IMG/VR virus record: IMGVR_UViG_2579778899_000005
Reading direction: 5' to 3' (one strand)
Length of the DNA: 19,870 nt
Source: a virus
Taxonomy: Duplodnaviria > Heunggongvirae > Uroviricota > Caudoviricetes
Shown here: one piece after another, positions 1-15,927 of the stretch
Layout: the number at the start of each line of letters is the position of its first letter
How positions within the stretch are numbered: position 1 is the first letter of the stretch
Translations under genes and position numbers: made by a program
Notes under the pieces: model-generated
Seen by the model: only the letters and a program-made list of their open reading frames with translations
Database searches by the model: none
What the model was told of the DNA's origin: nothing

Positions 1-355
1 AACACAAATGGCGATGGCGAGTATGGCGGTTCCCCTGCCATGCAGCCAGGCAGATGACGGAACGGCGACGATGTGGTTATCCGTCCTTGCGTTTGGCAGA
101 CAGGCCGACGCACTGGCAAAACACCGCAAAGGCGAACTGGTGAGCGTGGCGGGTAACATGCAGGTAAGCCAGTGGACAGGCCAGAACGGCGAAACGCGGC
201 AGGGCTGGCAGGTTATCGCAGACAGCGTAATCAGTGCGCGAACGGCGCGACCGGGCGGCAAAAAAGGCCAACAGGGGCAGGCCACTGATGCACTGAACAG
301 GGCAAAACAACAGGCAGGGAATGATGATCCGTACGGGGACGGGATACCGTTTTAA
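1..355 (+). CDS. ssb: Single-stranded DNA-binding protein, C-terminal part (5' end lies upstream of the window)
   Basis: Frame open from the window edge to TAA 353-355. Translation shows the C-terminal half of an OB fold, a Gly/Gln-rich linker and an acidic tail ending DDPYGDGIPF, matching the SSB C-terminal signature (E. coli SSB ends DDDIPF). Confidence 0.8.
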   Translation, partial: TQMAMASMAVPLPCSQADDGTATMWLSVLAFGRQADALAKHRKGELVSVAGNMQVSQWTGQNGETRQGWQVIADSVISARTARPGGKKGQQGQATDALNRAKQQAGNDDPYGDGIPF

Positions 356-370
356 GCAGTGAGGTACAGC

Positions 371-649
371 ATGATTAAAGACAGCAAAGCGGAAGAACTG
401 GAGGCTAAAGGGCTGTACCGGAGAGCGGCGGCACGTTGGGCTGATGTTATGTGGCTGGTGAGCACTGACAAGGAGCGCGAACAAGTGGCAAAGCGTCGCG
501 CGGAATGTATCCGTAAGGCAGCACGCCCACCAGTCATACCGGATAATTTCGGAATACTGAAAGAGGCCATAAACCGCACACATACCGGGATGGGCTTACA
601 GAAACCTGGCGGTGAGATGTTCAGGAACTACCCGAAAAAAAAGGGATAA
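371..649 (+). CDS. Small regulatory protein, tentatively PerC/ANR-like
   Basis: ATG 371 with GAGG 361-364 upstream, stop TAA 647-649. N-terminus MIKDSKAEELEAKGLYRRAAARWADV resembles, from memory, the PerC-family signature of small prophage-encoded activators. Family assignment is not verified. Confidence 0.45.
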   Translation: MIKDSKAEELEAKGLYRRAAARWADVMWLVSTDKEREQVAKRRAECIRKAARPPVIPDNFGILKEAINRTHTGMGLQKPGGEMFRNYPKKKG

Positions 650-698
650 TTGATAACGGTTGTTAACTGTTTCTGGTATCGTGGCAGCAGGAGGAAAC

Positions 699-947
699 AT
701 GCCAGTGACATTTGAAGAAGTCCAGCAACATAAAAAGCTTCATGATTTTGATGATCTGGAAACCACGACAGTAAAAAAATATCGCCGGCTGCTTTCTTCC
801 GATGCGTTATTTTTTGTGGATCATCATGATTTTCTGCGTAGCTCACTGACTGGGGAAATTTTCGCAACCAACCGTGAGCAGGTGGAAGCGATGATCGAAT
901 ATCTGTGGAAAATAAGGCGCAGAATGCGTGATCCCGTGAAACGGTAG
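699..947 (+). CDS. Hypothetical protein (82 aa)
   Basis: ATG 699 preceded by AGGAGG 689-694, stop TAG 945-947, immediately followed by a strong hairpin terminator. No recognisable family. Confidence 0.5.
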   Translation: MPVTFEEVQQHKKLHDFDDLETTTVKKYRRLLSSDALFFVDHHDFLRSSLTGEIFATNREQVEAMIEYLWKIRRRMRDPVKR

Positions 948-953
948 AATAAT

Positions 954-985
954 AATGGCCTGGTATTTTCCAGGCCATTATTTTT
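954..985. terminator. Bidirectional rho-independent terminator between convergent genes
   Basis: Perfect 10 bp inverted repeat AATGGCCTGG (954-963) / CCAGGCCATT (970-979) with a 6 nt loop, followed by TTTTT 981-985 and preceded by an A-rich run on the other strand. Lies between the stops of the + gene (947) and the - gene (984). Confidence 0.65.
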
Positions 986-1457
986 AGAAGTCGATCTCTG
1001 TATCGCGATTAAATTCATCGCTAAGGTAAAGTGCTTCGCTTGGGCATTTTCCGTTTTCCAGTAATGTTTCCCAGAAATCTTTATCGAAACATCCCTCAAG
1101 ATACAGATAGCGGCAGATGTGAAGTAAATCACTTCGTGTCCATCCGTGCATGCTGCTACTTGTTACACCATATTCACTTTCTAGTTTATAGAATGTGAGC
1201 GCCTCCCGGTCGTGCCAGGCTTTGCACAGACGATCGTATATCTTTTTAGCTTTGTTTTTAGATGTGCCGAAAAACTCTTCGTAAATTTCATGTGGGCGAG
1301 TAGGAATACTTCCGTCGCCATCCTGCAAGAAAGGATAAACATCTGCCTCCCAGGCATACACGTAAGAATCGCTGAACTCATCATAGTGTTTACCAAGGTG
1401 GAGAATCTGCAATCGTTGCTGAATGAACATTGCTTTTTTCAGTTCATTTTCTGACAT
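984..1457 (-). CDS. Hypothetical protein (157 aa), AT-rich cargo or moron-like gene
   Basis: Minus-strand ATG (complement of 1455-1457) preceded by GGAGG (complement of 1466-1470) at 8 nt spacing. Visibly more AT-rich than flanking phage genes, with its own upstream region and a terminator. No recognisable domain. Confidence 0.6.
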   Translation of the reverse strand: MSENELKKAMFIQQRLQILHLGKHYDEFSDSYVYAWEADVYPFLQDGDGSIPTRPHEIYEEFFGTSKNKAKKIYDRLCKAWHDREALTFYKLESEYGVTSSSMHGWTRSDLLHICRYLYLEGCFDKDFWETLLENGKCPSEALYLSDEFNRDTEIDF

Positions 1458-1574
1458 AGTTCGTTCCTCCTGATTGACGAGCAGAAAATGTACGGAACAG
1501 CTTATTTATTTTTTCAGGTTTTGTAAATTATTTGTTCGTGGTTGTTCCAGGTTGTTCGGTGATTCTGGCTGATG

Positions 1575-1633
1575 TTTACATACTGATTTTTATGTATATG
1601 TTGGCGTGTGGCACTCAGACGTGAGCCGCCACA
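1575..1633 (+). promoter_or_regulatory. Candidate sigma70 promoter plus inverted-repeat operator or 5' hairpin upstream of the capsid operon
   Basis: TTTACA 1575-1580, 16 bp spacer, TATGTT 1597-1602, then inverted repeat TGTGGC (1607-1612) - N15 - GCCACA (1628-1633). Pattern-based only. Confidence 0.3.
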
Positions 1634-1648
1634 ATGCCGCCTGACCCC

Positions 1649-1683
1649 CTGCGCGATGCCGGGTTGATCTGCGAGATGCCGGG
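1649..1683 (+). repeat. Two 15 bp direct repeats CTGCG(C/A)GATGCCGGG spaced 20 bp apart
   Basis: Copies at 1649-1663 and 1669-1683 differ at one position. They sit about 70-100 bp upstream of the capsid start codon, suggesting a phased protein-binding site. Confidence 0.5.
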
Positions 1684-1751
1684 AGTGTCGGGCGGCGCTC
1701 CCTCCGTGTTGGTTTCACGTCCTGAATCTTAACCAATACGAGAAAACCTTC

Positions 1752-2897
1752 ATGAAGAAATTAATCGAACTCCGCCAGCAAAAAACCGCCCTGAAAAACC
1801 AGATGCGATCCCTGCTGGAAAAAGCCGACAGTGAAAACCGCAGCCTGAACGATGACGAAGGCAAACAGTTTGATGAACTGCGTGCAAAAGCCGATTCCCT
1901 CGACACAGAAATCTCCCGTCTTGAAGCTGTTGCGGATGAAGAACGTAACCAGCCAGGTGTTTCCGTCGAAGAGAAAATTACCAAAGACGAACTGCGCTCT
2001 TACATTCTGACCGGGGAAACCCGCAACCTGTCCGGCAGTGTCCCGGCTGATGGTGGTTATACGGTTATCCCGGAACTGAACAGAGAAATTATGCGTCAGC
2101 TTTCTGATGAATCGGTGATGCGTAAAATCTGTACCGTTAAAACCATTCACAGCAATGAATTTAAGCAACTGGTTTCTGCCGGGGGCGCGGTCGTTGAACA
2201 CGGCGAAGAAGGTGCGGCACGTAACCAGACGGCAACACCAAAACTGAATGAAGTCAGTATCCGCCTGTATCCGATCTACGCTTACCCGAAAACCACTCAG
2301 GAAATTATCGATTTTTCCGAAGTCGATATTATGGGCTGGTTATCTTCTGAAATTGGCGACACTTTCGTTGATACCGAAGAAACGGATCTGGTTTCCGGTG
2401 ATGGCGAGAAAAAAGCTAAAGGTTTCCTGGCTTTTCCGCGCACTGCGGATAACGACAAAACCCGTCCTTTCGGTACGCTCCAGACGAAAAAAGTTACTGG
2501 CAGTCTCAGCGCCGACATGCTGATTGACCTGAAATTTACGCTGCGCAATAAGTACCGCAAAAAAGCTGTATGGGTGATGAACTCAAATACAGCCGCCTCC
2601 GCACAAAAACTGAAAAATGCCACTGGTGATTACATCTGGCGCGATCGTTTACAGGCTGGTGATCCTGATTCTCTGCTGGGGCTTCCGGTTGAATATCTGG
2701 AATTTATGCCGGACGGTGTGATTGCAGTAGGTGACTTTAAGCGCGGTTATTTCATCGTTGACCATGAAACCGGTACGCGTACCCGTCCGGATTTCAGCGA
2801 ACCTGGATTCATTAACATCTATACCCAGAAATATCTGGGCGGTGGTGTGGTGGATTCGAACGCCATCAAGATTCTGGAAATTCAGGCTGGCAAGTAA
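1752..2897 (+). CDS. Major capsid protein, HK97 family, with N-terminal coiled-coil delta (scaffold) domain
   Basis: 381 aa. N-terminal ~100 aa is a charged coiled coil. C-terminal part carries HK97-fold motifs (KGFLAFP, GDFKRGYFIVD, GGGVVDSNAIKILEI). No separate scaffold gene. Confidence 0.9.
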   Translation: MKKLIELRQQKTALKNQMRSLLEKADSENRSLNDDEGKQFDELRAKADSLDTEISRLEAVADEERNQPGVSVEEKITKDELRSYILTGETRNLSGSVPADGGYTVIPELNREIMRQLSDESVMRKICTVKTIHSNEFKQLVSAGGAVVEHGEEGAARNQTATPKLNEVSIRLYPIYAYPKTTQEIIDFSEVDIMGWLSSEIGDTFVDTEETDLVSGDGEKKAKGFLAFPRTADNDKTRPFGTLQTKKVTGSLSADMLIDLKFTLRNKYRKKAVWVMNSNTAASAQKLKNATGDYIWRDRLQAGDPDSLLGLPVEYLEFMPDGVIAVGDFKRGYFIVDHETGTRTRPDFSEPGFINIYTQKYLGGGVVDSNAIKILEIQAGK

Positions 2898-2902
2898 TGA
2901 GC

Positions 2903-2927
2903 AAAGGGGGCTTCGGCCTCCTTTTTC
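2903..2927 (+). terminator. Rho-independent terminator or attenuator directly after the capsid gene
   Basis: GGGGGC (2906-2911), TTCG tetraloop, GCCTCC (2916-2921; one G-U pair), then TTTTT 2922-2926. Begins 6 nt after the capsid stop. Confidence 0.55.
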
Positions 2928-2946
2928 AGCTTTATGGAGTACACCG

Positions 2947-3507
2947 ATGAAAAATACCGATTTTGAAATCCGTACATCTGAACTGACCGCCTGCGATAAA
3001 AAACTGGTGGGTTATGCCGTTCGCTGGAACAGCCTTTCAGAAATTATCTGGGACGAATTCCGCGAACAGTTCACGCCGGGGGCTTTTGCTGACTATCTGG
3101 CGGCGGGTAATGATGTGCGCTGCCTGTATGAGCATGACTATACCCGACTGCTGGGGCGCACCAAATCCGGAACACTGGTACTGACTGAGGACAACACCGG
3201 GCTACGTTTTGAACTGACACCGCCTGATACCCAGCTTGGAAAAGATGTGCTTACGCTGGTGGAGCGTGGCGACATTACAGGAATGAGCTTTGGCTTTCGC
3301 GCATTATGCGAAGAGTGGAATATCGCGCAAAAACCGTATCTGCGCACTGTTACCGCCGCAGAACTTCGTGAAATCACGATAACGTCAATGCCTGCTTATC
3401 CCGAATCTGGCGTGGAGATTGCCCATCGTTCGTTGTTTGCACAGCACCCTGAATTACGCCCGGCAGGAAATAATCGTCATCGCTGGGCTGAACTGGCGGG
3501 GTTGTGA
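2947..3507 (+). CDS. Prohead maturation protease, HK97 (S78) family
   Basis: ATG 2947 with GGAG 2936-2939 at 7 nt spacing. Motifs GYAVRWN and GMSFGF are typical of HK97-family prohead proteases. Stop TGA 3505-3507. Confidence 0.85.
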   Translation: MKNTDFEIRTSELTACDKKLVGYAVRWNSLSEIIWDEFREQFTPGAFADYLAAGNDVRCLYEHDYTRLLGRTKSGTLVLTEDNTGLRFELTPPDTQLGKDVLTLVERGDITGMSFGFRALCEEWNIAQKPYLRTVTAAELREITITSMPAYPESGVEIAHRSLFAQHPELRPAGNNRHRWAELAGL

Positions 3508-3508
3508 T

Positions 3509-4723
3509 ATGTGGTGGCCTTTTAGTCGTAAAAAAAGCGATCTGCGTAACCTGTCCATTGATGATTTTCTGGCGCTGTCCGGCGTACCGAATACCGGATC
3601 CGGAGAATATGTTTCTGCCGGGACGGCTGAATCATTGCCTGCTGTGATGAACGCGGTTTCTGTCATCGCTGAGGCGGTGGCCACGATGCCGTGTTATCTG
3701 TATCTGGTACGCAATGACAAGGGCAGGGAGGCGCGGGAATGGCTGGACAGTCACCCGGTCGATATTCTGCTGAATGAGCAGCCTAATTCGTGCCAGACAC
3801 CTTACCAGTTTAAACGCACAATGATGCGTCACTGCCTGCTGAACGGTAACGCCTATGCGGTTATTGAGTGGGGGCGGGACGGTCAGCCAAAATCACTTCA
3901 TCCTTATGCGCCGGGGTGTGTTGTACCGGAACGCACTGGCGCACACAAATACCGCTATACCATCACCGAACCCTATACAGGAACGGTGCGCACGTATTTA
4001 CAGGAAGAAGTTCTGCATCTCCGCTATGCCTCGGATGATGGCTTTCTGGGGCGCTCCCCCGTCACGATTTGCCGTGAGGCGCTGGGGCTTGGCCTTGCTC
4101 AACAGCGTCACGGAGCCAGCATTATGAAAGATGGCATGATGGCGGCAGGGATTATCACGTCAGGCGAATGGCTGGACGGCGTAAAAGGTAAACAGGCATT
4201 AGACGCCCTGGAACGCTACAAGGGGGCGAAAAATGCCGGAAAAACGCCAATCCTTGAAGGGGGCATGGATTACAAGCAACTGGGGATGAGTAACCAGGAT
4301 GCGGAATGGCTGGCCTCCCGTCGCTTCTCCATTGAAGACATCGCCCGGATGTTCAACGTGTCGCCTATTTTTCTGCAGGAATACAGCAACAGCACCTACA
4401 GCAATTTCAGTGAGGCAAGCCGCGCGTTTCTGACCATGACAATGCGTCCGTGGCTGGCGAACTTCGAACAGCAAATCAAGGCCGCTTTGCTGGTGGCTTC
4501 TCCCGTACCTGGTACCCGTTATCTGGTTGAGTTTGATTCAGCCGATTTATTACGCGCCACCCCTACCGAACGTTACGCCACGTATGAGAAAGGGATTAAG
4601 AACGGGATCATGAATCCGAACGAAGCCCGCGAACGTGAGGGGATGCCGCCGCGTGAAGGTGGCGACGAATTCAGCCAGGCATGGAAGCAGACGGTGGAAA
4701 TTAAAGGTGAAAAAGATGAGTGA
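3509..4723 (+). CDS. Portal protein, HK97 family
   Basis: ATG 3509 lies 1 nt after the protease stop. 404 aa protein with the same overall pattern as the second portal in this window (NGNAYAV..., MDYKQLGMSNQDAEWLASRRFSIEDIARMFNVSP). Stop TGA 4721-4723. Confidence 0.9.
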   Translation: MWWPFSRKKSDLRNLSIDDFLALSGVPNTGSGEYVSAGTAESLPAVMNAVSVIAEAVATMPCYLYLVRNDKGREAREWLDSHPVDILLNEQPNSCQTPYQFKRTMMRHCLLNGNAYAVIEWGRDGQPKSLHPYAPGCVVPERTGAHKYRYTITEPYTGTVRTYLQEEVLHLRYASDDGFLGRSPVTICREALGLGLAQQRHGASIMKDGMMAAGIITSGEWLDGVKGKQALDALERYKGAKNAGKTPILEGGMDYKQLGMSNQDAEWLASRRFSIEDIARMFNVSPIFLQEYSNSTYSNFSEASRAFLTMTMRPWLANFEQQIKAALLVASPVPGTRYLVEFDSADLLRATPTERYATYEKGIKNGIMNPNEAREREGMPPREGGDEFSQAWKQTVEIKGEKDE

Positions 4724-5015
4724 AGAAAAAATTACACCTGATGAAGTCAGGGCACATCTTCGCCTTGATGACTTTTCCGGAGAAGGCGAACTTCTGAAAA
4801 TGTATACCGATGCGGCGCTGGAAGCCTGCCAGAAGCACATCGGGAAACGTTTTGAAGACGGTCTGGAATTTACCCCGGCAATGCGTGTTGGTTGCCTGAT
4901 GTACATCGCTTTTCTGTATGAGAACAGGGAAGCGGTTTCACCTGTGGAGCAGTCGGAACTGCCTATGGCTATTTCTGCGCTCTGGTCAGTTTATCGTGAT
5001 GTGGGGGTGTATTGA
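4716..5015 (+). CDS. Head-tail connector, gp6-like
   Basis: ATG 4716 overlaps the portal stop (ATGAGTGA) with AGGTG upstream. 99 aa, similar in size and pattern to the gp6-like protein at 12997-13302. Confidence 0.7.
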   Translation: MSEEKITPDEVRAHLRLDDFSGEGELLKMYTDAALEACQKHIGKRFEDGLEFTPAMRVGCLMYIAFLYENREAVSPVEQSELPMAISALWSVYRDVGVY

Positions 5016-5455
5016 TGCCGTGGCAACCATTAAGGCGTTGTACTGAACCGGGCTGTAATAAGCGTGTGAAGTCAGGCAAGTGTGAAGAGCACAGGCGGGC
5101 TGCATGGCGTGCAGAGGATGCCAGACGGGGACACCGCCGCGCGCGTGGGTATTCCCGACAGTGGGACAAATACCGCGCCCTGTATCTGAGCAAAAACCCG
5201 TTATGCGTGCGTTGTCTGGCTAAAGGTATTTATACGCCAGCTCTTGTGGTGGATCACATCATTCCCATCAATGGCGGCGGTGATGTTCTCTTCTGGCCTG
5301 AGTGGAATCACCAGGCATTGTGCCAGACGTGCCACAACCGTAAGACGACACGGGAAGATCCAGCCACGAAAGCGAACCGTAAGGCGGGCATGTATCGCGA
5401 GCAGGAAGAACGGGCGGCACATCGTAACGACTGGATGTATGGCGATGATGACTGA
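5015..5455 (+). CDS. HNH endonuclease (terminase-associated)
   Basis: ATG 5015 overlaps the upstream stop (TGATG). Cys-rich N-terminus and HNH core (VDHIIPINGGGD...WNHQALCQTCHNRKT). HNH genes adjacent to terS/terL are typical of cos-type HK97-like packaging modules. Confidence 0.85.
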   Translation: MPWQPLRRCTEPGCNKRVKSGKCEEHRRAAWRAEDARRGHRRARGYSRQWDKYRALYLSKNPLCVRCLAKGIYTPALVVDHIIPINGGGDVLFWPEWNHQALCQTCHNRKTTREDPATKANRKAGMYREQEERAAHRNDWMYGDDD

Positions 5456-5624
5456 ACAGGAGCAAAACAGGCTGATACGTGGACTGATAAGGCAGCGTGA
5501 CACATGGAAGGCACAGGAGACAGGGCACAAAGCCAACAGGACAGGGCGCACAGAACGCACCACAGCGAAGCGATTAACCGACCGTGACCGCGAGGTCATG
5601 GAATGTTTTCGCAATCGCTGGTGA
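5439..5624 (+). CDS. Possible small basic protein (61 aa); coding status uncertain
   Basis: ATG 5439 overlaps the HNH 3' end in another frame, stop TGA 5622-5624. Arg/Lys-rich, no clear RBS. May be non-coding sequence within a packaging-site region. Confidence 0.25.
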   Translation: MAMMTEQEQNRLIRGLIRQRDTWKAQETGHKANRTGRTERTTAKRLTDRDREVMECFRNRW

Positions 5625-5743
5625 GGCCGTCAGAGGGGGTGGGGGAGGTTTTCAGGACAAAACCGTCCCTGCCGGACACCGACCGCCTCCTCAAATTTTT
5701 GTGCACGGGAATTTTTTTGAAAATAATTGGGCGAAAAAAGAAC

Positions 5744-6100
5744 ATGGCAAGACCACCAAAAGCCCCCGCTTACCTGGATGAAATTGCGGTCAGGCAATGG
5801 AAGGAAAAATCGCGCCAGCTTTCCGTGCGGGAAGACCTTACCCCCGCCGACTGGAGCAATCTGGAGCTGTATTGCGTTAACTACTCCATATACCGCAAAG
5901 CCGTCGAAGACCTTGCGACGCGCGGGTTCAGCATTGTTAACAGTCAGGGCAGCGAGAGCAGAAACCCCGCCCTGAGCGCAAAGGCTGACGCAGAAAGAAT
6001 AATGATCAAAATGGCTTCTTTGCTGGGTTTTGACCCGGTAAGCCGCCGCAGAAATCCACCGGAAACAGAGGAAGAGGACGAGCTTGACCGCCTGGCATGA
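5744..6100 (+). CDS. Terminase small subunit, P27-family-like
   Basis: 118 aa beginning MARPPKAPAYLDEIAVRQWKE..., with the size and N-terminal pattern of P27-family TerS. Positioned between HNH and TerL. No strong SD before ATG 5744. Confidence 0.75.
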   Translation: MARPPKAPAYLDEIAVRQWKEKSRQLSVREDLTPADWSNLELYCVNYSIYRKAVEDLATRGFSIVNSQGSESRNPALSAKADAERIMIKMASLLGFDPVSRRRNPPETEEEDELDRLA

Positions 6101-7745
6101 GTACGCAGAAGGCGTAAAAAACGGCAAAATTACGGCCTGTAAACGACTGAAACAGGCCGTTAAACGGTATTTTTCTGACCTTGAAAACCCCCTTTACACG
6201 TTCGATCCGGAGGTCGTGGAGCGGTTTATTGCCTTTTCCAGGGTGTGTCCGCACGTAAAAGGCGCAATGCGCGGTAGCCCCATTGAGCTGGAGCCGTGGC
6301 AGCAGTTCGCCTTTGCCTGCATCCTGGGCTTTAAGGTTAAGGCCACCGGACGGCGCAAATACACCAGCGCATTCATTGAAGTACCGCGAAAAAATGCCAA
6401 ATCCACGGTCGCCGCTATCCTGGCTAACTGGTTTCTGGTTATGGAAAACGGGCAGCAGGATATTTACACCGCCGCCGTGAGTCGTGATCAGGCGCGGATC
6501 GTGTTTGATGATGCGCGTCAGATGTGCCTTTTATCCCGACCGTTACGAAAGCGGGTAAATATTCAGGCACACAAGGTGATACACCCGAAAACCAACAGCC
6601 TGTTAAAGCCACTGGCAGCAAAAGCGGCAACCATTGAGGGGACAAACCCGAGTCTCGCCATTGTGGATGAATATCACCTGCACCCTGACAACGGGGTTTA
6701 TTCCGCGCTTGAACTGGGAATGGGGGCGCGTCCGGAGGGGTTATTATTTGCCATCACCACATCGGGGAGCAACGTTGTTTCAGCCTGTAAACAACACTAC
6801 GACTATTGCTGCCAGATACTGGATGGTGAAGAGGTGAACGAATCCATGTTCGTGCTTATTTACGAGCTGGATGATGAAAGCGAGGTTGACGATCCGGCGA
6901 TGTGGATAAAGGCGAATCCCAATATCGATGTTTCCGTCGATCGTGAAAAACTGGCCTCAACCATCCAGAAAGCGCGGGGTATTCCGTCGCAGTGGGTGGA
7001 AATGCTCACCAAGCGATTCAATATCTGGTGTCAGGGGGCTACGCCGTGGATGGGTAACGGTGCATGGGCGGAGTGCGCCGGAACGTTCGCGGAGGCGGAT
7101 TTATACGGGCAGGAGTGCTACGCGGGGCTGGACTTATCATCAACTAGCGATATTTCCAGCGTGTGCTATGCCTTTCCGGTCGGTAAAAAGATTATGCTGG
7201 TTTCCCGTCACTATCTGCCGGAATTTCAGCTACAGAACCCCGCCAATAAAAACCGCGCCATCTATCGCCAGTGGGTAAAGGCGGGCTGGATACGCACAAC
7301 ACCGGGTGACTGCATTGATTATGACCGTATCCGTGATGACATCATGGCGGATGCAGAGAATTTCAATATCAGGCTGGTGGGCTTCGATACATGGAACGCC
7401 ACGCACCTGAGGACGCAGCTACAGGGGGCAGGATTTGAGGTGGAGCCGTTCCCGCAAACATACCTTCGTTTCAGTCCGGCGGCGAAATCGTTCGAAGTTT
7501 TTGTTAACCGGAAGGTGATTGTGCATCGTGGCGATCCGGTGCTGGCCTGGTCAATGAGTAATGTTGTGATGCAGAGTGACGCGAACGCCAATATCAAGCC
7601 GAACAAGAAAAAATCATCCAACAAGATAGACCCGAGCGTTGCGGCGCTGATGGCGTTTGGCACATTCCAGGCAGAGCATGAGGAATTTGCATTTGATATG
7701 AGCGACAGCCACAAAGAGCGGCTTGCGGCGTTTGATGGGGTATGA
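6084..7745 (+). CDS. Terminase large subunit (ATPase plus nuclease domains)
   Basis: 553 aa. Start taken as TTG 6084 (AGAGGA 6073-6078 upstream), overlapping the terS end; start codon choice is uncertain. The C-terminal half aligns by eye with the truncated terminase fragment at 8737-9462. Confidence 0.9.
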   Translation: MTAWHEYAEGVKNGKITACKRLKQAVKRYFSDLENPLYTFDPEVVERFIAFSRVCPHVKGAMRGSPIELEPWQQFAFACILGFKVKATGRRKYTSAFIEVPRKNAKSTVAAILANWFLVMENGQQDIYTAAVSRDQARIVFDDARQMCLLSRPLRKRVNIQAHKVIHPKTNSLLKPLAAKAATIEGTNPSLAIVDEYHLHPDNGVYSALELGMGARPEGLLFAITTSGSNVVSACKQHYDYCCQILDGEEVNESMFVLIYELDDESEVDDPAMWIKANPNIDVSVDREKLASTIQKARGIPSQWVEMLTKRFNIWCQGATPWMGNGAWAECAGTFAEADLYGQECYAGLDLSSTSDISSVCYAFPVGKKIMLVSRHYLPEFQLQNPANKNRAIYRQWVKAGWIRTTPGDCIDYDRIRDDIMADAENFNIRLVGFDTWNATHLRTQLQGAGFEVEPFPQTYLRFSPAAKSFEVFVNRKVIVHRGDPVLAWSMSNVVMQSDANANIKPNKKKSSNKIDPSVAALMAFGTFQAEHEEFAFDMSDSHKERLAAFDGV

Positions 7746-8035
7746 CGAGAATGAGCGAAACCGAACTACTAAAAATAATCCGCCGCGTTACCGGAATCAG
7801 CCAGGAAGCAGGCAAACAGGAGGCCACGCAGCCGGACAGCGTGATAGCCGAAAATTACGCGCGTGTGGTGGCTGAGGTGATGCGCCGTGACGGTATCGAG
7901 CTTAACGGCGTGGATATACGCAATATACGCACCAGAGTTCTGGAGTTGTTGTCATATCGTCGCCGCGTGGAGATGTACCAGGAGAAAGAAAAAATTACTT
8001 ACCACTGGAAGAAGCCGGAGCGGTTACGACGTTAA
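7742..8035 (+). CDS. Hypothetical protein (94-97 aa), translationally coupled to terL
   Basis: ATG 7742 overlaps the terL stop (ATGA); alternative ATG at 7751. Stop TAA 8033-8035. No recognisable family. Immediately followed by a phased repeat array. Confidence 0.5.
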   Translation: MTRMSETELLKIIRRVTGISQEAGKQEATQPDSVIAENYARVVAEVMRRDGIELNGVDIRNIRTRVLELLSYRRRVEMYQEKEKITYHWKKPERLRR

Positions 8036-8041
8036 CTTGTG

Positions 8042-8090
8042 GTGACATACCGTGACGGAGAGTGACAACCAGTGACACACAGTGACAAAA
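8042..8090 (+). repeat. Five tandem GTGAC(A) motifs at exact 10 bp periodicity
   Basis: GTGAC at 8042, 8052, 8062, 8072 and 8082 (GGTGACATAC CGTGACGGAG AGTGACAACC AGTGACACAC AGTGACAAAA). One copy per helical turn, starting 7 nt after the stop of ORF 7742-8035. Confidence 0.75.
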
Positions 8091-8108
8091 AGACGGTATT
8101 TAAATAGA

Positions 8109-8289: not shown

Positions 8290-8442
8290 GCGGGTTATTT
8301 GGGGGGTATTTGCGGGTTATTTTGAATGTCTCGCGGGTTACGCTTTGGCTAATATTCAAACGCATCATTTTTTAACGCATTGATATTAAAGAATAAAAAA
8401 TACTTAGCAAGCGAAGATAACCCGCTAACCCGCATAACCCGC
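8290..8442. repeat. Iteron-like repeat clusters: 3x GCGGGTTA(T) at ~22 bp spacing, an AT-rich core, then 3x inverted TAACCCGC in tandem
   Basis: Direct copies start at 8290, 8312 and 8333, with a degenerate GGGGGTATTT copy at 8301-8311. Reverse-complement copies at 8418-8425, 8426-8433 and 8435-8442. They flank a ~75 bp AT-rich segment (8343-8417). A 12 bp GTATATATATAC palindrome follows at 8451-8462. Confidence 0.75.
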
Positions 8443-8629: not shown

Positions 8630-8650
8630 GTGTATTGCGCTGTGTATTGC
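8630..8650 (+). repeat. Tandem GTGTATTGC repeat (2 copies, 12 bp apart)
   Basis: Copies at 8630-8638 and 8642-8650, with a related GTGTATC at 8601-8607, in AT-rich non-coding DNA. Confidence 0.6.
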
Positions 8651-8736
8651 TTGATGATTTATAAAGACTGTTTTTTCATGTTAAACGATTGATATACAGG
8701 TGATTTTAAAAAACTTGAAATATTCTTACCAAACAC

Positions 8737-9462
8737 ATGAATGTGTGGGTAACAGCAGAGTCTGCCTGGATGGACATGATTAAGTGGGAGAAGTGCGAAT
8801 ACATTGCCCCACGACATGAGCTGAAAACGTATCCCATGTGGGTCGGCGTTGACCTTGCTCATAAGATTGATATCTGTGCGGCGGCAAAACTCTGGCGAAC
8901 GGATAACGGGCATGTTCATGCCGATTTTAAATTCTGGCTTCCGGAAGGACGGCTGGAACGATGCTCGCGGCAGCAGGCAGAACTTTACCGGAAGTGGGCG
9001 GAGATGGATAAGCTGATTCTGACGGATGGTGATGTTATCGATCATGCTCAGATAAAAAGTGACTTACTGGAATGGATTGGTGGTGAAAACCTCAGGGAAC
9101 TGGGATTTGACCCGTGGAGCGCGATGCAGTTCAGCCTGGCACTGGCTGAAGAAGGGATACCGCTGGTGGAGGTTCCGCAGACGGTTCGCAATCTGTCAGA
9201 GGCCATGAAGGAAACGGAATCACTGGTCTATGCCGGGCGTTTCCATCACAGCAATCATCCGGTCATGAACTGGATGATGTCTAACGTTACGGTAAAACCG
9301 GACAAAAACGACAATATCTTCCCGAATAAATCCACGCTGGAAGCCAAAATCGACGGCCCTGTTGCGATGTTTACAGCAATGAGCCGGATGCTGGTCAATG
9401 GTGGTGAACCGGAGCTGGATCTGTCTGAACATCTGGTCAGCGTGGGCATCCGCTCGCTTTAA
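8737..9462 (+). pseudogene. Terminase large subunit remnant: C-terminal nuclease half only, N-terminal ATPase domain absent
   Basis: The 241 aa ORF aligns by eye with the C-terminal ~240 aa of the intact TerL at 6084-7745 (NVWVTAESAWM vs NIWCQGATPWM; VGVDLAHKID vs AGLDLSSTSD). An in-frame stop at 8716-8718 and a lack of SD upstream indicate truncation near 8720-8740. Confidence 0.7.
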
Positions 9463-9473
9463 CCGAGGTCATT

Positions 9474-9656
9474 ATGTTTCTGATAATTCTCGCGCCACTG
9501 GTGGGCGTGCTGGGTGCGCTTTTGCTGGCGTATGGTGCCTGGCTGATTTATCCCCCGGCGGGTTTTGTTGTTGCCGGGGTGCTGTGCCTGTTCTGGTCGT
9601 GGCTGGTGGCGCGATATCTCGACCGTACACAGCCGTCTGTCGGCGGAGGTAAATAG
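9474..9656 (+). CDS. Small hydrophobic protein (60 aa, two predicted transmembrane helices)
   Basis: ATG 9474 with GAGGT 9465-9469. Sequence is dominated by two hydrophobic stretches ([25 protein letters not shown] and [20 protein letters not shown]). Stop TAG 9654-9656 overlaps the portal GTG start. Confidence 0.45.
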
Positions 9657-10897
9657 TGTTCTTTTCGGGATTATTTCAACGAAAAAGTGACGCGCCGGTG
9701 ACCACACCAGCAGAGCTGGCGGATGCCATCGGGTTGTCTTACGACACCTATACCGGAAAGCAGATCAGCAGTCAGCGGGCCATGCGACTGACGGCGGTTT
9801 TTTCCTGCGTCAGAGTGCTGGCAGAGTCGGTCGGGATGTTGCCCTGCAATCTGTATCACCTGAACGGCAGCCTGAAACAGAGGGCCACCGGCGAACGTCT
9901 GCATAAGCTGATCTCCACGCATCCCAATGGCTATATGACGCCGCAGGAGTTCTGGGAGCTGGTGGTCACCTGTCTGTGCCTGAGGGGAAACTTTTACGCC
10001 TACAAAGTGAAAGCATTTGGCGAAGTGGCTGAACTGCTGCCCGTCGATCCCGGTTGTGTGGTACCGAAGCTTAACAGTCGCTGGGAGCCGGTCTATCAGG
10101 TCACATTCCCGGACGGTTCCACGGATGTACTGAGCCAGGAAGATATCTGGCATGTGCGCACGTTGACGCTGGACGGTCTGGTGGGACTGAATCCCATCGC
10201 CTATGCCCGCGAGGCAATATCGCTGGCAGCAGCGACCGAAGAGCACGGGGCCAGACTGTTCAGCAATGGTGCGGTGACGTCCGGTGTGTTGCGTACAGAA
10301 CAGACGCTGTCGGATCAGGCTTATGAGCGCCTGAAGAAAGATTTTGAGGAGCGTCACACCGGGCTTGGCAATGCTCACCGCCCGATGATCCTTGAGATGG
10401 GGCTGGACTGGAAGTCGATGGCGCTGAACGCCGAGGACAGCCAGTTCCTGGAAACCCGCAAGTTTCAGCTTGAAGAAATCTGTCGTCTGTTCCGGGTGCC
10501 GTTGCACATGGTGCAGAACACCGATCGCGCCACCTTCAACAATATCGAAGAGCTGGGGCTGGGATTTATCAACTATTCACTGGTGCCGTATCTGACCCGC
10601 ATCGAACAGCGGATCAACACCGGACTGGTACGAAAAAGTAAGCAGGGCGTTTATTACGCCAAATTTAACGCCGGGGCGTTACTGCGCGGGGATATGAAGT
10701 CCCGTTTTGAAGCCTACGCCACCGGGATCAACTGGGGAATTTACTCTCCCAATGACTGCCGCGACCTGGAAGATATGAATCCGCGTCCCGGTGGGGATGT
10801 CTATCTCACACCGATGAACATGACCACGAAACCCTCCGATGGCAGTAAAGCCGGTAAGCAGAAGGATAACGCCAATGCAGACGAAACAACGTCTTGA
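9656..10897 (+). CDS. Portal protein, HK97 family (second copy)
   Basis: GTG 9656 with GGAGG 9645-9649 at 6 nt spacing. 413 aa with portal pattern (RGNFYAYKV, LDWKSMALNAEDSQFLETRKFQLEEICRLFRVP), paralogous to the portal at 3509-4723. Confidence 0.9.
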   Translation: MFFSGLFQRKSDAPVTTPAELADAIGLSYDTYTGKQISSQRAMRLTAVFSCVRVLAESVGMLPCNLYHLNGSLKQRATGERLHKLISTHPNGYMTPQEFWELVVTCLCLRGNFYAYKVKAFGEVAELLPVDPGCVVPKLNSRWEPVYQVTFPDGSTDVLSQEDIWHVRTLTLDGLVGLNPIAYAREAISLAAATEEHGARLFSNGAVTSGVLRTEQTLSDQAYERLKKDFEERHTGLGNAHRPMILEMGLDWKSMALNAEDSQFLETRKFQLEEICRLFRVPLHMVQNTDRATFNNIEELGLGFINYSLVPYLTRIEQRINTGLVRKSKQGVYYAKFNAGALLRGDMKSRFEAYATGINWGIYSPNDCRDLEDMNPRPGGDVYLTPMNMTTKPSDGSKAGKQKDNANADETTS

Positions 10898-11525
10898 TGT
10901 ACCGCTGAGTCTGAAATCTGTCAGTGACTCCGGTGAGTTTGAAGGGTATGGCTCCGTCTTTGGTGTAAAGGACAGCCACGATGATGTGGTGATGTCCGGG
11001 GCATTTGCTGCTTCCCTGCGGGCGTGGAGTGACAGAAAAGCGTTACCTGCGCTGCTCTGGCAGCACCGCATGGATGAACCCATCGGTGTTTACACCGAAA
11101 TGAAGGAAGACGATGTCGGGCTTTACGTCAGGGGACGGTTGCTTATTGATGATGATCCCCTTGCAAAACGCGCACATGCACACATGAAGGCCGGTTCGTT
11201 AACCGGCCTTTCTATTGGGTACGTCCTGAAAGACTGGGAATACGACCGGAGCAAAGAAGCCTTTCTGCTGAAAGAAATCGACCTCTGGGAAGTCAGCCTG
11301 GTGACGTTCCCGTCTAACGACGAGGCGCGGATCAGCGACGTCAAGAACGCACTGGCCCGCGGGGAAATCCCCGAACAGAAAAAAATCGAAAGAGTCCTGC
11401 GTGATGTCGGACTCTCCCGTACCCAGGCCAAAGCATTCATGGCCGGGGGCTATGGCGCACTGTCCCTGCGCGACGCTGAGGATGTGGGCTCTGCACTGAA
11501 TGCACTGAAAAATCTGAACTTCTAA
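10875..11525 (+). CDS. Prohead maturation protease, HK97 (S78) family (second copy)
   Basis: Preferred start ATG 10875 (GAAGGA 10861-10866 upstream); an alternative ATG at 10839 has no SD. Motifs GYGSVFGV and LSIGY. Overlaps the portal 3' end. Stop TAA 11523-11525. Confidence 0.8.
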   Translation: MQTKQRLDVPLSLKSVSDSGEFEGYGSVFGVKDSHDDVVMSGAFAASLRAWSDRKALPALLWQHRMDEPIGVYTEMKEDDVGLYVRGRLLIDDDPLAKRAHAHMKAGSLTGLSIGYVLKDWEYDRSKEAFLLKEIDLWEVSLVTFPSNDEARISDVKNALARGEIPEQKKIERVLRDVGLSRTQAKAFMAGGYGALSLRDAEDVGSALNALKNLNF

Positions 11526-11539
11526 TCAGGAGAAATACG

Positions 11540-12745
11540 ATGGCGGTTGATATTAAAGATGTCGAACAGGTCGCGCAGGAGCTGCAGCAGAAGTTTGACG
11601 ACTTCAAAGCAAAGAACGACAAGCGCGTGGATGCGATTGAGCAGGAAAAAGGCAAACTTGCCGGGCAGGTGGAAACCCTGAACGGGAAACTCAGCGAGCT
11701 GGAAAACCTCAAAAGCGATCTTGAAAAAGAGCTGCTTGAGCTGAAACGTCCGGCAGGTGGTGCGCAAAATAAACTGGCCACCGAGCATAAAGAAGCGTTT
11801 GTGGGCTTCCTGCGTAAAGGCCGTGAAGATGGTCTGCGCGATCTGGAGCGCAAGGCATTACAGGTGGGCACCGATGAAGACGGCGGCTATGCCGTGCCGG
11901 AAGCACTGGATCGCAACATTCTCACCCTGCTGAAAGATGAAGTGGTGATGCGCCAGGAAGCCACGGTGATCACCGTTGGTGGTTCCGACTACAAAAAACT
12001 GGTGAATCTGGGCGGCACGGCTTCCGGATGGGTTGGCGAGACTGACGCGCGCTCCCAGACTGCCACCTCCAGACTGGGCCTGATTGAACCTTTCATGGGG
12101 GAAATCTACGGTAACCCGCAGGCCACCCAGAAAATGCTGGATGATGCCTTTTTCAACGTGGAAGCATGGATCAACAGCGAGCTGGCAACCGAATTTGCCG
12201 AACAGGAAGAAATTGCCTTTACCACCGGCGATGGTACCAAGAAGCCGAAAGGGTTCCTGGCGTATGAGTCCACGGATGAAACCGACAAGGTCCGGGCGTT
12301 CGGCAAACTTCAGCATATTGTATCCGGCGAAGCGACGGCGGTGACCGCAGATGCCATTATCAAACTGATTTACACGCTGCGAAAGGCACACCGCACTGGC
12401 GCGAAGTTCATGATGAACAACAACAGCCTGTTTGCCATCCGTCTGCTGAAAGACACCGAGGGTAACTATCTGTGGCGTCCGGGGCTGGAACTGGGGCAGC
12501 CGTCCTCTCTGGCGGGTTACGGTATCGCTGAAAACGAACAGATGCCGGATATTGCCGCTGATGCGAAAGCCATTGCATTTGGTAACTTCAAACGGGGTTA
12601 CACCATCGTTGACCGTATCGGTACCCGCATTCTGCGTGACCCGTACACCAATAAACCGTTTGTCGGTTTTTATACCACCAAGCGCACCGGCGGCATGCTG
12701 GTCGATTCGCAGGCCATCAAACTGCTGAAGATTGCAGCGGCGTAA
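11540..12745 (+). CDS. Major capsid protein, HK97 family with delta domain (second copy)
   Basis: ATG 11540 with AGGAG 11528-11532. 401 aa with N-terminal coiled coil and HK97-fold motifs (KGFLAYE, GNFKRGYTIVD, GGMLVDSQAIKLLKI). Paralogous to, but diverged from, the capsid at 1752-2897. Confidence 0.9.
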   Translation: MAVDIKDVEQVAQELQQKFDDFKAKNDKRVDAIEQEKGKLAGQVETLNGKLSELENLKSDLEKELLELKRPAGGAQNKLATEHKEAFVGFLRKGREDGLRDLERKALQVGTDEDGGYAVPEALDRNILTLLKDEVVMRQEATVITVGGSDYKKLVNLGGTASGWVGETDARSQTATSRLGLIEPFMGEIYGNPQATQKMLDDAFFNVEAWINSELATEFAEQEEIAFTTGDGTKKPKGFLAYESTDETDKVRAFGKLQHIVSGEATAVTADAIIKLIYTLRKAHRTGAKFMMNNNSLFAIRLLKDTEGNYLWRPGLELGQPSSLAGYGIAENEQMPDIAADAKAIAFGNFKRGYTIVDRIGTRILRDPYTNKPFVGFYTTKRTGGMLVDSQAIKLLKIAAA

Positions 12746-12750
12746 TCATT

Positions 12751-12776
12751 CAGGGGGCGCAGAAGTGCGCCCCCTG
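12751..12776 (+). terminator. Strong stem-loop (terminator-like or attenuator) directly after the second capsid gene
   Basis: 11 bp stem CAGGGGGCGCA (12751-12761) / TGCGCCCCCTG (12766-12776) with loop GAAG, followed by a weak T-rich tract TTCT. Confidence 0.45.
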
Positions 12777-12796
12777 TTCTGACAGGTGAAAGAATC

Positions 12797-12985
12797 ATGA
12801 TCCTGAAACAAGATCTGAAATGGTCACCGGACGGTATGCGTGTTGAGATTATTCGGGCCGGTGAGTATGAAGATAAAGAATTACCCAAACGGGTACGCGA
12901 AATTGCCACTGCAGCTGGGATTGTCTCTGATAAGAGAACACCTGTTGCGCGGGGGGCTGATAAGTCTAAAAAACAGCATTCATAG
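12797..12985 (+). CDS. Hypothetical small protein (62 aa)
   Basis: ATG 12797 with AGGTGA 12784-12789, stop TAG 12983-12985. Sits between the capsid and connector genes. No recognisable family. Confidence 0.5.
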   Translation: MILKQDLKWSPDGMRVEIIRAGEYEDKELPKRVREIATAAGIVSDKRTPVARGADKSKKQHS

Positions 12986-12996
12986 AGGTTGCCCAA

Positions 12997-13302
12997 ATGA
13001 TGCCCACTCTGGAAGAGCTTCGTGTTCAGTGCCGGATTGATGATGACAATGAACAGGAGAATTCTCTTCTTATGATGTATCTGGCTGCTGCTAGGGAAGA
13101 GGCTGAAAAGTTTTTAAACCGGACGCTTTACGATGAAACTGTTTCTGAGCAGGATACGACCGGGATTGTAATAACACCTCTGATAAAACTGCGTCTTATG
13201 CAACTGGTTGGCTACTGGTACGAGAACAGGGAAATGCAGGATGCAGTGCCTGATTTTTTCTATACCGGACTGCGGATGTATCGATTTCATCCCGGAACAT
13301 AG
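12997..13302 (+). CDS. Head-tail connector, gp6-like
   Basis: ATG 12997 with AGAGG upstream. 101 aa with size, position and pattern of gp6-like connectors (compare 4716-5015). Confidence 0.7.
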   Translation: MMPTLEELRVQCRIDDDNEQENSLLMMYLAAAREEAEKFLNRTLYDETVSEQDTTGIVITPLIKLRLMQLVGYWYENREMQDAVPDFFYTGLRMYRFHPGT

Positions 13303-13310
13303 GAGGATTC

Positions 13311-13649
13311 ATGCAGGCAGGAAGATTACGTGATCGTGTGGTTATTCTGAATGCCACCACCGTTCGGTCTCCGTCAGGGCACCCTGTGGAAACAATGACG
13401 GAGGGGGCAACCATATGGGCAGAAGTTAAGGGGATCAGTGGCAGGGAGAGAATATCCGGAGGCGCAGAAACTGCTCAGGCTACAGTGAGGGTCTGGATGA
13501 GATTCCGGCGAGATGTAACTGCAACTTCATGTCTGAAAGTGCTGACTGGTGCATTCAAAGGCGCGATTCTGAGTATAGACGGTCCGCCGATACCGGATGC
13601 TCGTGCCACACGGCTTGAGATACTCTGTTCTCAGAAGGGGAATGTGTGA
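13311..13649 (+). CDS. Head closure / head-tail joining protein
   Basis: ATG 13311 with AGGAGG 13301-13306. N-terminus MQAGRLRDRVVILN is typical of phage head-tail joining proteins. 112 aa. Confidence 0.7.
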   Translation: MQAGRLRDRVVILNATTVRSPSGHPVETMTEGATIWAEVKGISGRERISGGAETAQATVRVWMRFRRDVTATSCLKVLTGAFKGAILSIDGPPIPDARATRLEILCSQKGNV

Positions 13650-14095
13650 TGGATTTCAGTCTTGATTTTTCAGGTCTGGCGGATATTGCACGGGATCTGG
13701 AGACGCTCAGCAGGGCAGAAAACAATAAGGTACTGCGCGATGCCACCCGTGCCGGTGCTGAAGTTATGCGGGATGCAGTTGTTGAACGTGCGCCGGAGCG
13801 AACCGGGAAACTGAAGAAAAATGTGGTTGTTCTCACTCAGCGTTCAAAGCGTCGGGGGGAAATTATCTCGGGTGTCCACATTCGTGGACGGAACCTGCGA
13901 ACCGGAAACAGTGATAACAGCATGAAAGCCAGTGATCCCCGAAATGCGTTTTACTGGCGCTTTGTGGAGCTGGGAACGATAAACATGCCCGCGCATCCGT
14001 TCATTCGCCCAGCTTTCGATACGACAGAGGAACTGGCAGCACAGATTGCCATACAGCGAATGAATCAGGCTATTGATGAGGTCTTAAGTAAATGA
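13649..14095 (+). CDS. HK97 gp10-family tail/neck component
   Basis: ATG 13649 overlaps the upstream stop (GTGATG). 148 aa with the pattern of HK97 gp10-family proteins (...RDATRAGAEVMRDAVVERAPERTGKL...). Confidence 0.65.
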   Translation: MDFSLDFSGLADIARDLETLSRAENNKVLRDATRAGAEVMRDAVVERAPERTGKLKKNVVVLTQRSKRRGEIISGVHIRGRNLRTGNSDNSMKASDPRNAFYWRFVELGTINMPAHPFIRPAFDTTEELAAQIAIQRMNQAIDEVLSK

Positions 14096-14436: not shown

Positions 14437-14456
14437 GGTCGTTAATGATTTTACCC

Positions 14457-14480
14457 ACCCGCCGCTGGCGGGTTTTTTAT
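14457..14480 (+). terminator. Rho-independent terminator between the neck genes and the major tail gene
   Basis: ACCCGCC (14457-14463), loop GCT, GGCGGGT (14467-14473), then TTTTTT 14473-14478. The major tail RBS (CAGGAGA 14484-14490) and ATG 14496 follow. Confidence 0.55.
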
Positions 14481-14495
14481 TTTCAGGAGACGAGT

Positions 14496-15888: not shown

Positions 15889-15896
15889 GTCAACAT

Positions 15897-15917: not shown

Positions 15918-15927
15918 CGTCCGGAGA

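Follow-up and report, generated by a model that had tools for sequence, protein, structure and literature searches.

The prototype of the capsid-forming PICIs (cf-PICIs) is EcCIEDL933 of E. coli O157:H7 EDL933 (EDL933 1,680,329-1,694,760), the only element for which own small capsids and a need for helper tails only have been shown experimentally (Alqurainy et al., 10.1101/2022.09.08.507074). Packaging modules of cf-PICIs are 50-90% similar to that of EcCIEDL933, with conserved organisation (10.1101/2022.09.08.507074). The element is chromosomal, between roxA and phoQ; the 1.71-1.755 Mb region of EDL933 holds an unrelated lambdoid prophage, and EDL933 is not mentioned in the ISME J 2018 PICI paper. 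A separate body of work describes helper-embedded PICIs (HE-PICIs), among them those of the site class A:Terminase_1:246, which lie co-oriented within terL of HK97-like prophages (Tommasini, Mageeney & Williams 2023, PMC10111431); the term cf-PICI is not used there, and late genes are treated as "captured". In the experimentally induced HE-PICI-helper composite 11capE/50icd of E. coli NRG857c, an 11-kb satellite lies co-oriented within a helper late gene, capsid gene E; it has no terS, and its packaging is presumed to rely on the machinery of the helper. Excision of a composite followed by excision of the satellite has been measured only for 11capE, in a capsid gene, and virions were not recoverable (PMC10111431). 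That cf-PICIs integrate into prophage late genes was already stated by a 2025 preprint.

The window analysed here is a stretch of 19,870 nucleotides from a tailed-phage record (IMGVR_UViG_2579778899_000005). With a probability of about 0.9, its positions 1-8732 are the right-hand 8.7 kb of a cf-PICI of approximately 15.9 kb, co-oriented inside terL of an HK97-like lambdoid prophage. In this portion lie the end of the replication zone, a complete module for head formation and packaging, and the right arm of attP. The element is already known: it is a clean case of published E. coli phage satellite biology and not a new element type. The features of the window are as follows.

1..355, plus strand, 5' end cut by the window edge: ssb, replication zone (Pfam SSB 5e-10; 69% identity to EcCIEDL933 SSB)
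371..649, plus strand: PerC-family putative transcriptional activator (phrog_994 4.6e-42, transcriptional-activator PHROGs; 61% to the EcCIEDL933 PerC-family gene)
699..947, plus strand: small hypothetical, conserved in cf-PICIs (phrog_1957 8e-36; 40% to EcCIEDL933 hyp74)
984..1457, minus strand: 157-aa accessory ORF (annotated; identical protein WP_001293446.1 in KFu019 and TUM9757)
1752..2897, plus strand: HK97-type major capsid (Phage_capsid 1.5e-60; TIGR01554 1.2e-88; 75% to EcCIEDL933 capsid)
2947..3507, plus strand: prohead serine protease, S78 (Peptidase_S78 8.9e-45; 62% to EcCIEDL933)
3509..4723, plus strand: portal (Phage_portal 6.5e-93; 81% to EcCIEDL933)
4716..5015, plus strand: gp6-like head-tail connector, adaptor Ad1 (TIGR01560 2.7e-19; phrog_40 2.1e-28; 57% to EcCIEDL933)
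5015..5455, plus strand: HNH endonuclease (HNH 9e-10; phrog_144 9.9e-46; 84% to EcCIEDL933)
5439..5624, plus strand: 61-aa conserved hypothetical (phrog_3173 3.6e-28; 80% to EcCIEDL933 hyp60)
5625..5743, no strand: probable cos region of the satellite
5744..6100, plus strand: TerS, P27/Terminase_4 family (Terminase_4 5.2e-23; 88% to EcCIEDL933)
6084..7745, plus strand: satellite TerL, full length (TerL_ATPase and TerL_nuclease; 93% to EcCIEDL933)
7751..8035, plus strand: 94-aa conserved hypothetical, last island gene (phrog_1561 8.7e-50; 77% to the last EcCIEDL933 gene)
8042..8086, plus strand: GTGAC repeated five times with a period of exactly 10 bp (0 expected by chance)
8290..8442, no strand: ori-like iteron cluster, three direct and three inverted GCGGGTTA flanking an AT-rich spacer (repeat counts)
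8631..8650, plus strand: doubled TGTATTGC, the arm-type signature of HE-PICI attP sites (repeat scan and published consensus)
8726..8732, plus strand: TTACCAA, crossover core of attR, closing the satellite on the right (exact over 42 nt to the A_Terminase_1_246 attR as published)
8733..9462, plus strand: 3' fragment of the helper terL (TerL_nuclease 9.4e-37, profile positions 64-283 only)
9656..19161, plus strand: helper structural genes in canonical order (Pfam; 98.6% to vB_EcoM-606R7)

Pfam, PHROG and NCBIfam scans recovered SSB, the PerC-like gene, capsid, protease, portal, connector, HNH, TerS and TerL in this order on the plus strand, bearing out an earlier sequence-only reading of the window, which had described a capsid-to-TerL set preceded by ssb and small genes. 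The same order runs in EcCIEDL933 from SSB/PerC through capsid, protease, portal, connector, HNH, a 60-aa ORF, TerS and TerL to an ORF of ~93 aa. Packaging proteins of the two islands are 57-93% identical, all eight in the module are within 4 residues of the length of their functional EcCIEDL933 counterparts, and the cf-PICI head and packaging set (capsid, protease, portal, connector, HNH, TerS and TerL) is complete and full length by this comparison. This one-for-one match to an experimentally characterised element supports the proposal that the left block is a capsid-forming PICI, and the gene order, which had been put forward as matching that of cf-PICIs, agrees with EcCIEDL933. What falls is the suggestion of a previously uncharacterised relative: the island is an EcCIEDL933 homolog in a helper-embedded configuration published in 2023. 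The gene order had also been called the reverse of the canonical one. This is apt for capsid-protease-portal, which has the modules for integration and replication between it and TerL (both the order and the separation are common to EcCIEDL933), but not for HNH-(cos)-TerS-TerL, the normal HK97 arrangement read across the integrated permutation.

An HNH endonuclease is a packaging accessory of HK97-type cos systems, in which HNH-cos-TerS is the rule. The cos site of the island probably lies between HNH and TerS, as indicated by the termini of a single database record, that of Escherichia phage vB_KppS-Ant (LR881103), whose linear sequence begins 22 nt before TerS and whose right end aligns to window position 5658. 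This 16.5-kb genome, obtained from an induced lysate and deposited as a phage, has cf-PICI-like content, reading from its linear end TerS, TerL, ..., int, primase, capsid, protease, portal, closure, connector, HNH. Its packaging genes share ~77% DNA identity with those of the window; unlike the window island, it carries gp9, a closure gene, and a large post-TerL ORF annotated as tape measure.

All island genes except one small ORF lie on the plus strand, as do terL and the helper late genes. The reverse-strand 157-aa ORF had no match in Pfam, PHROG, NCBIfam, PADLOC or PDB sequences and no homolog in EcCIEDL933, where no second iteron cluster and no doubled TGTATTGC are found either; the window island has all three. 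No tail or lysis genes were found by Pfam and PHROG from the window start to attR, nor across the whole island in KFu019 or 042. The observation that no tail gene follows TerL holds within the element and not in the window, where the tail genes at ~13.3-19.2 kb are those of the surrounding prophage, with its split terL continuing from 8733. An Rfam scan of the whole window at gathering thresholds returned nothing, including C4/isrK-type immunity RNAs (the PICI Bro zone lies outside the window), a tRNA scan was likewise empty, and promoter and terminator scans did no better than on shuffled sequences. A weak hairpin with a T-run is present at 8111-8125, 3' of the last island gene.

The left block had been drawn to end at 8035; the element in fact reaches the attR core at 8726-8732. 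Both attR and its TTACCAA core are identical to those published for site A:Terminase_1:246 (Tommasini et al. 2023, PMC10111431), and on this sequence evidence we assign the island to that HE-PICI class. The same heptamer is found in the intact terL of phage vB_EcoM-606R7, with which the terL 3' fragment is contiguous; in the window the frame of this fragment is closed by a TGA at 8716-8718. The 5' fragment of terL precedes the island in KFu019 and 042, and without the island the two fragments join to give the intact terL known from a sequenced phage. The site thus lies inside a prophage late gene. As in 11capE/50icd, attP carries no replacement sequence, so that the target gene would be restored only on excision, with GTGAATTTTTTTACCAAACACATG as the expected attP/restored-terL junction. 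The published arm signature of HE-PICIs is a doubled tgTGTATTGCantgTGTATTGCa consensus ~81 bp upstream and ~132 bp downstream of the attP centre (PMC10111431). In the window the upstream doubled motif (8631-8650) ends 75-82 bp before the core region, an offset that varies with the definition of the centre, and in KFu019 the downstream one (positions 12917-12936 of locus L001) lies ~132-136 bp after the core. Among the compared loci, doubled TGTATTGC was seen only in the embedded island of KFu019, at both arms. Of 5426 complete E. coli genomes, 34 carry this same junction.

The window opens inside ssb, without the left half or attL, and the evidence for integrase, AlpA and primase comes from relatives only. 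E. coli KFu019 shares 8.5 kb with the window at 99% identity and carries the full ssb (L001 19933-20355). A look upstream for integrase, AlpA and primase, as the earlier reader had advised, was positive in the closest complete genomes, KFu019 and 042: both have a DUF927 primase, DUF4222, an Icd-like gene, Bro-N, two AlpA-family genes (Phage_AlpA) and a tyrosine integrase (Phage_integrase with Arm-DNA-bind_3) upstream of ssb, and no tail genes there. A PICI-type left half is thus present in these relatives, outside the window, and the whole island measures 15.9 kb. The 042 island is Eco33.15.A_Terminase_1_246 of the integrase-based catalogue in the supplement of PMC10111431; its junction and gene content are the same as in the window, but its right arm is shorter, with TerL as the last annotated gene before attR, whereas the window island adds the 94-aa gene and the GTGAC array. 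Compared with the KFu019 relative, EcCIEDL933 has a DUF927 primase that is 83% identical and an integrase that is only 42% identical. The same packaging module also occurs in TUM9757, in a chromosomal cf-PICI that lies between cspD and clpS and has another integrase.

Beyond attR, portal, protease, capsid, connector, head closure (13311-13649), gp10, gp17, major tail, chaperones and tape measure follow one another in a segment that aligns to vB_EcoM-606R7 in a single piece at 98.6% identity with no indels; the major tail protein shares 72% identity with its HK97 counterpart. The embedding in a prophage terL, the attR right end and this canonical head and tail module had all been missed in the sequence-only reading. 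Head proteins of island and prophage are 29-37% identical (capsid 37%, portal 33%). We considered whether the island TerL might be a recent "backup copy" of the gene that was interrupted, and rejected this, because the island protein is only 31% identical to the intact helper-type TerL and because the packaging proteins of EcCIEDL933 play no part in helper packaging (10.1101/2022.09.08.507074).

Two HK97-type head modules on the same strand within 13 kb could be taken for one ordinary prophage whose head module was duplicated or rearranged, or whose left block had been read in the wrong orientation, a case that the sequence-only reading had itself raised against its proposal. This is refuted by the att-site evidence, and we give it practically no weight: the boundary is a precise integrase attR matching a published site, taking the island out heals the split terL, the two modules share as little as 29-37% identity, and the genes upstream of ssb in the relatives are a PICI-type integrase, AlpA and primase and not phage early or tail genes. 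Nearly as improbable is that off-target integration brought a chromosomal cf-PICI into the prophage by accident, which would make its location biologically meaningless. Such events are documented, and the module does occur at the cspD/clpS site with a different integrase; however, the identical junction recurs in the 34 complete genomes, from varied sources, dozens of published cases share the core (the site-class label occurs 68 times in each att supplement file), and the HE-PICI-specific doubled arm motif is present.

Somewhat less remote, though still unlikely, is a decaying, immobile remnant, that is, a satellite trapped in a defective prophage with both partners inactive. In the chromosome many helpers of HE-PICIs appear truncated (Tommasini et al., PMC10111431), the island integrase and the helper early region lie beyond the window, and the island has no head-closure gene. 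Against decay stand the conserved lengths of all eight packaging proteins, the gap-free match of the helper segment to an isolated phage, and the intact attR, core and arm motif. We retain the reading of a helper-embedded cf-PICI.

The island differs from the prototype in one component of the neck. EcCIEDL933 has a head-closure gene between portal and connector; in the window island this second head-tail joining component of cf-PICIs is absent, and the portal and connector genes abut (4723/4716). When the EcCIEDL933 closure protein was used in a tblastn search, its sole match was the helper gene at 13311-13649, whose product is 50% identical to it, compared with 29-37% for other head proteins. 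SatelliteFinder counts head closure/adaptor among its 11 core components, and the "Type B" variant with 10 of the 11 is the commonest class (PMC10085698). The closure-less island corresponds to this variant and is still compatible with cf-PICI membership. Since the gene is missing, and in EcCIEDL933 it belongs to a module in which all genes but one are essential for transfer (10.1101/2022.09.08.507074), the island putatively depends on closure supplied by the helper. Dependence of this variant on its host prophage may be deeper than that of the prototype, extending to the closure protein as well as tails.

Two repeat arrays lie near the right end. The GTGAC array was absent from the KFu019, EDL933 and TUM9757 loci by motif search, and its segment is variable in direct alignment with KFu019 and EcCIEDL933. 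Six of the eight copies of GCGGGTTA in the window fall inside 8290-8442 (0.49 expected in the whole window), and the same octamer makes up the iteron cluster adjoining the primase in both KFu019 and EcCIEDL933. A Rep-iteron cluster beside attR might act as a second origin, or might titrate Rep and in this way set the timing of excision relative to replication.

Cited work on relatives suggests how the composite would operate. Upon prophage induction it would excise and replicate, and late transcription would run on from the helper operon into the island. Island integrase and AlpA would then excise the island at TTACCAA and restore terL. Small heads would be built from the island's own capsid, protease, portal and connector, filled from the cos site by HNH, TerS and TerL, and joined to tails made by the surrounding prophage, which in this closure-less variant would probably supply the head-closure protein too. 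In this respect the island, with its own heads and terminase and its position in terL, differs from 11capE. The helper would be without a functional terminase until the island excises, so its packaging would be delayed, in the satellite's favour. A combined reading, in which the prophage provides closure as well, the terL block turns it into a tail-and-neck factory and the iterons near attR serve as origin or titration site, is a tentative one that we consider rather doubtful.

The window reveals no new principle; it is a well-resolved case that joins the literatures on cf-PICI biology and on helper-embedded integration. For annotation, the lesson is that "partial terminase" pseudogenes on the flanks of a head module without tail genes indicate a nested satellite and not prophage decay. 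The island could be used as a test system, for instance to ask whether a prophage becomes terminase-null when its island is integrase-dead. Capsid-forming PICIs move genes between enterobacterial species, and embedding in the helper terL is an extreme form of satellite-helper coupling, in which the satellite decides whether the helper can package. If the deeper dependence is true, the terL site would keep the helper from packaging until the island leaves, and the prophage would until then be a tail-and-neck factory for its satellite.

ORF listing and profile scans place two head modules in the window, both on the plus strand. The left one forms the right-hand part of a capsid-forming phage-inducible chromosomal island (cf-PICI), and the right one belongs to the surrounding HK97-like prophage, its helper.

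Features of the two head modules
1-355, plus: island SSB, truncated at the window edge
371-649, plus: island PerC-like gene; two small ORFs lie between it and the capsid gene
1752-2897, plus: island HK97-type major capsid
2947-3507, plus: island S78 protease
3509-4723, plus: island portal
4716-5015, plus: island gp6-like connector
5015-5455, plus: island HNH, followed by a 61-aa ORF
5744-6100, plus: island P27-family TerS
6084-7745, plus: island TerL
7751-8035, plus: island 94-aa ORF
8737-9462, plus: TerL fragment opening the right module (nuclease-domain profile positions 64-283 only)

After the TerL fragment, the right module continues in canonical order with portal, protease, capsid, connector, head closure, gp10, gp17, major tail, chaperones and tape measure. 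The left-module genes and their order, as listed earlier from the sequence alone, were borne out. A low-GC patch separating the replication from the head module holds a minus-strand ORF of 157 aa (984-1457), for which searches of Pfam, PHROGs, NCBIfam, PADLOC and PDB sequences gave no hit. An identical protein occurs in E. coli KFu019 and in strain TUM9757, whereas the prototype cf-PICI, EcCIEDL933, lacks it; the ORF may be an accessory or cargo gene.

The sequence-only reading of the left module as a cf-PICI agrees with its synteny and protein identities with EcCIEDL933. That island, located in EDL933 between roxA and phoQ, has the order int, AlpA, ..., DUF4222, DUF927, SSB, PerC, hypothetical, capsid, protease, portal, head closure, connector, HNH, hypothetical, TerS, TerL, hypothetical. 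Its proteins match those of the window one for one (TerL 93%, TerS 88%, HNH 84%, portal 81%, capsid 75%, protease 62% and connector 57%), the small ORFs match too, and protein lengths are equal within 4 residues; the window falls inside the 50-90% range by which the authors of EcCIEDL933 defined the family (10.1101/2022.09.08.507074). Compared with their counterparts in the surrounding prophage, the island head proteins reach only 29-37% identity, in agreement with the “low protein identities” reported between cf-PICIs and helpers (10.1101/2022.09.08.507074). EcCIEDL933 also has a homolog of the 94-aa gene. Within its module, the mutant of “hypothetical gene 1792” was the only one to keep residual transfer (10.1101/2022.09.08.507074).

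The left module recurs, several of its proteins identical, in TUM9757, where its island lies in the chromosome between cspD and clpS and carries a different integrase. Another relative, vB_KppS-Ant (LR881103, 16.5 kb), was sequenced out of an induced lysate and deposited as a phage; it encodes int, primase, capsid, protease, portal, closure, connector, HNH, TerS and TerL and, except for a single ORF annotated as tape measure, no tail module. It is probably a satellite listed as a phage.

From 8719 to 19870 the window matches Escherichia phage vB_EcoM-606R7 at 98.6% identity in a single gap-free piece that starts within the phage terL. The intact phage gene contains ...GTGAATTTTTTTACCAAACACATGAATGTGTGG..., and its sequence picks up again in the window at TTACCAA (8726-8732); upstream of this core lies unrelated AT-rich DNA, where a TGA at 8716 ends the frame. 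Tommasini, Mageeney & Williams described helper-embedded PICIs (HE-PICIs) at 14 sites within prophage late genes, including the site class A:Terminase_1:246 with the att identity “ttaccaa” (PMC10111431). The published attR of this class matches the window exactly (42-mer, 8691-8732, 0 mismatches; none expected by chance). A doubled TGTATTGC motif approximately 81 bp upstream of the attP centre is an HE-PICI signature (PMC10111431), and it is found at 8631-8650; of the loci compared, the embedded island alone carries it, in both arms, and the chromosomal cf-PICIs lack it. Because terL resumes at the core, attR matches the published class and the arm motif is present, the island ends at 8732 rather than at 8035, where the sequence-only reading had placed its right end. 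Both cf-PICI biology and helper-embedded integration have been published, and the two have been explicitly linked; the window is therefore a member of the catalogued HE-PICI site class A:Terminase_1:246 and does not represent the “previously uncharacterised relative” proposed as an alternative.

The left half of the island can be read from relatives. The KFu019 locus is 99.0% identical to window 1-8500. Upstream of the island, its annotation shows lysis genes of the prophage, then HNH, TerS and the 5' part of terL, which covers the ATPase domain and nuclease positions 2-53. The island follows with a tyrosine integrase that has an arm-binding domain, a pair of AlpA-family genes, Bro-N, Icd-like, DUF4222 and a DUF927 primase; next come SSB and all window content, and then the 3' part of terL with the head and tail genes of the prophage. 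Its attL and attR lie 15,943 bp apart and have a 7-bp core in common, and fusing the flanks restores an intact terL reading frame. The arrangement is the same in E. coli 042, whose island is catalogued as Eco33.15.A_Terminase_1_246 within helper Eco33.57.zinT|mtfA (supplement of PMC10111431). Thus, in these two relatives the integrase, AlpA and primase sought upstream by the sequence-only reading are present and tail genes are absent; neither tail genes upstream of ssb nor an ordinary canonical prophage was found. The attR junction is carried by 34 of 5426 complete E. coli genomes, and about a thousand further genomes match with the uninterrupted terL part only. The right arm in 042 (19921-20430 of its locus) is approximately 500 bp shorter than window 7745-8732, with no ORF annotated after TerL, where the window carries the 94-aa gene.

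The core TTACCAA is found in the window, phage 606R7 and 042; KFu019 has TCACGAA instead, at its attL and attR alike (12779-12785 and 28722-28728 of its locus). Both encode the same terL residues, F-T-K, by synonymous codons, and therefore the attP core seems to follow synonymous variation in the target gene. The attL of the window island is expected to read …GTGAATTTTTTTACCAA|GAAAGTAACATCACGCC…, approximately 7.2 kb upstream of the window, with HNH and TerS of the helper and terL up to about codon 343 lying ahead of it.

The gene order had been described as the reverse of the canonical one. The true departures are that the head genes run capsid, protease, portal and that this block is separated from TerL, both traits of the cf-PICI family seen directly in EcCIEDL933; “different genetic organisations” have been noted for cf-PICIs (10.1101/2022.09.08.507074). 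In part, the impression of reversal arises because the island is seen in its integrated permutation, with attP between TerL and int and cos most probably between HNH and TerS. The vB_KppS-Ant record begins 22 nt ahead of TerS, its right end aligns at window 5658, and the island cos is predicted within 5625-5743. Read from cos, the order is TerS-TerL-...-int-...-primase-...-capsid-protease-portal-connector-HNH, and HNH/cos/TerS/TerL is therefore the ordinary HK97 arrangement.

The right arm carries two repeat arrays. Six GCGGGTTA octamers at 8290-8442 comprise three direct copies (22/21-bp spacing), an AT-rich spacer of approximately 75 bp and three inverted copies. The same octamer makes an ori-like cluster beside the DUF927 primase gene in KFu019 (19725-19870 of its locus) and EcCIEDL933 (36267-36405 of the EDL933 locus); a two-iteron pattern search of EcCIEDL933 found no site besides this cluster. 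Judged from sequence, the array at 8290-8442 looks like a second origin or Rep-binding site at the right end of the island. Directly after the last island gene, five GTGAC copies recur with an exact 10-bp period (8042-8086; none expected by chance). This array was not found in close relatives, and unrelated sequence replaces the segment of roughly 65 bp in KFu019 and EcCIEDL933, which marks the spot, on sequence comparison, as hypervariable.

EcCIEDL933 and vB_KppS-Ant have a head-closure gene between portal and connector, whereas the island has none at this junction (4716-4723). The sole closure homolog within the window is a helper gene (13311-13649), whose product shares 50% identity with the closure protein of EcCIEDL933, above the level of the other island-versus-helper head proteins. 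Since the island lacks the gene present in EcCIEDL933, the helper gene probably supplies its closure function.

The sequences themselves show the anatomy of the element, its homologies, its att site and its recurrence across genomes; how it most likely works is drawn from experiments on relatives. EcCIEDL933 makes small capsids of its own, is packaged by the HNH, TerS and TerL that it encodes, and takes only tails from the helper (10.1101/2022.09.08.507074). In the HE-PICI 11capE, helper and satellite first excise and replicate together as a composite, and later excision of the satellite restores the late gene (PMC10111431). Here, helper late transcription would run through TerS and terL' into the island int and alpA, and helper packaging would be impossible until excision at TTACCAA restored terL with the sequence GTGAATTTTTTTACCAAACACATGAATGTG. 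HK97-type helper tails would then attach to the heads of the island; in its major tail protein the helper shares 72% identity with HK97, and the helpers that have been tested are HK97-like phages.
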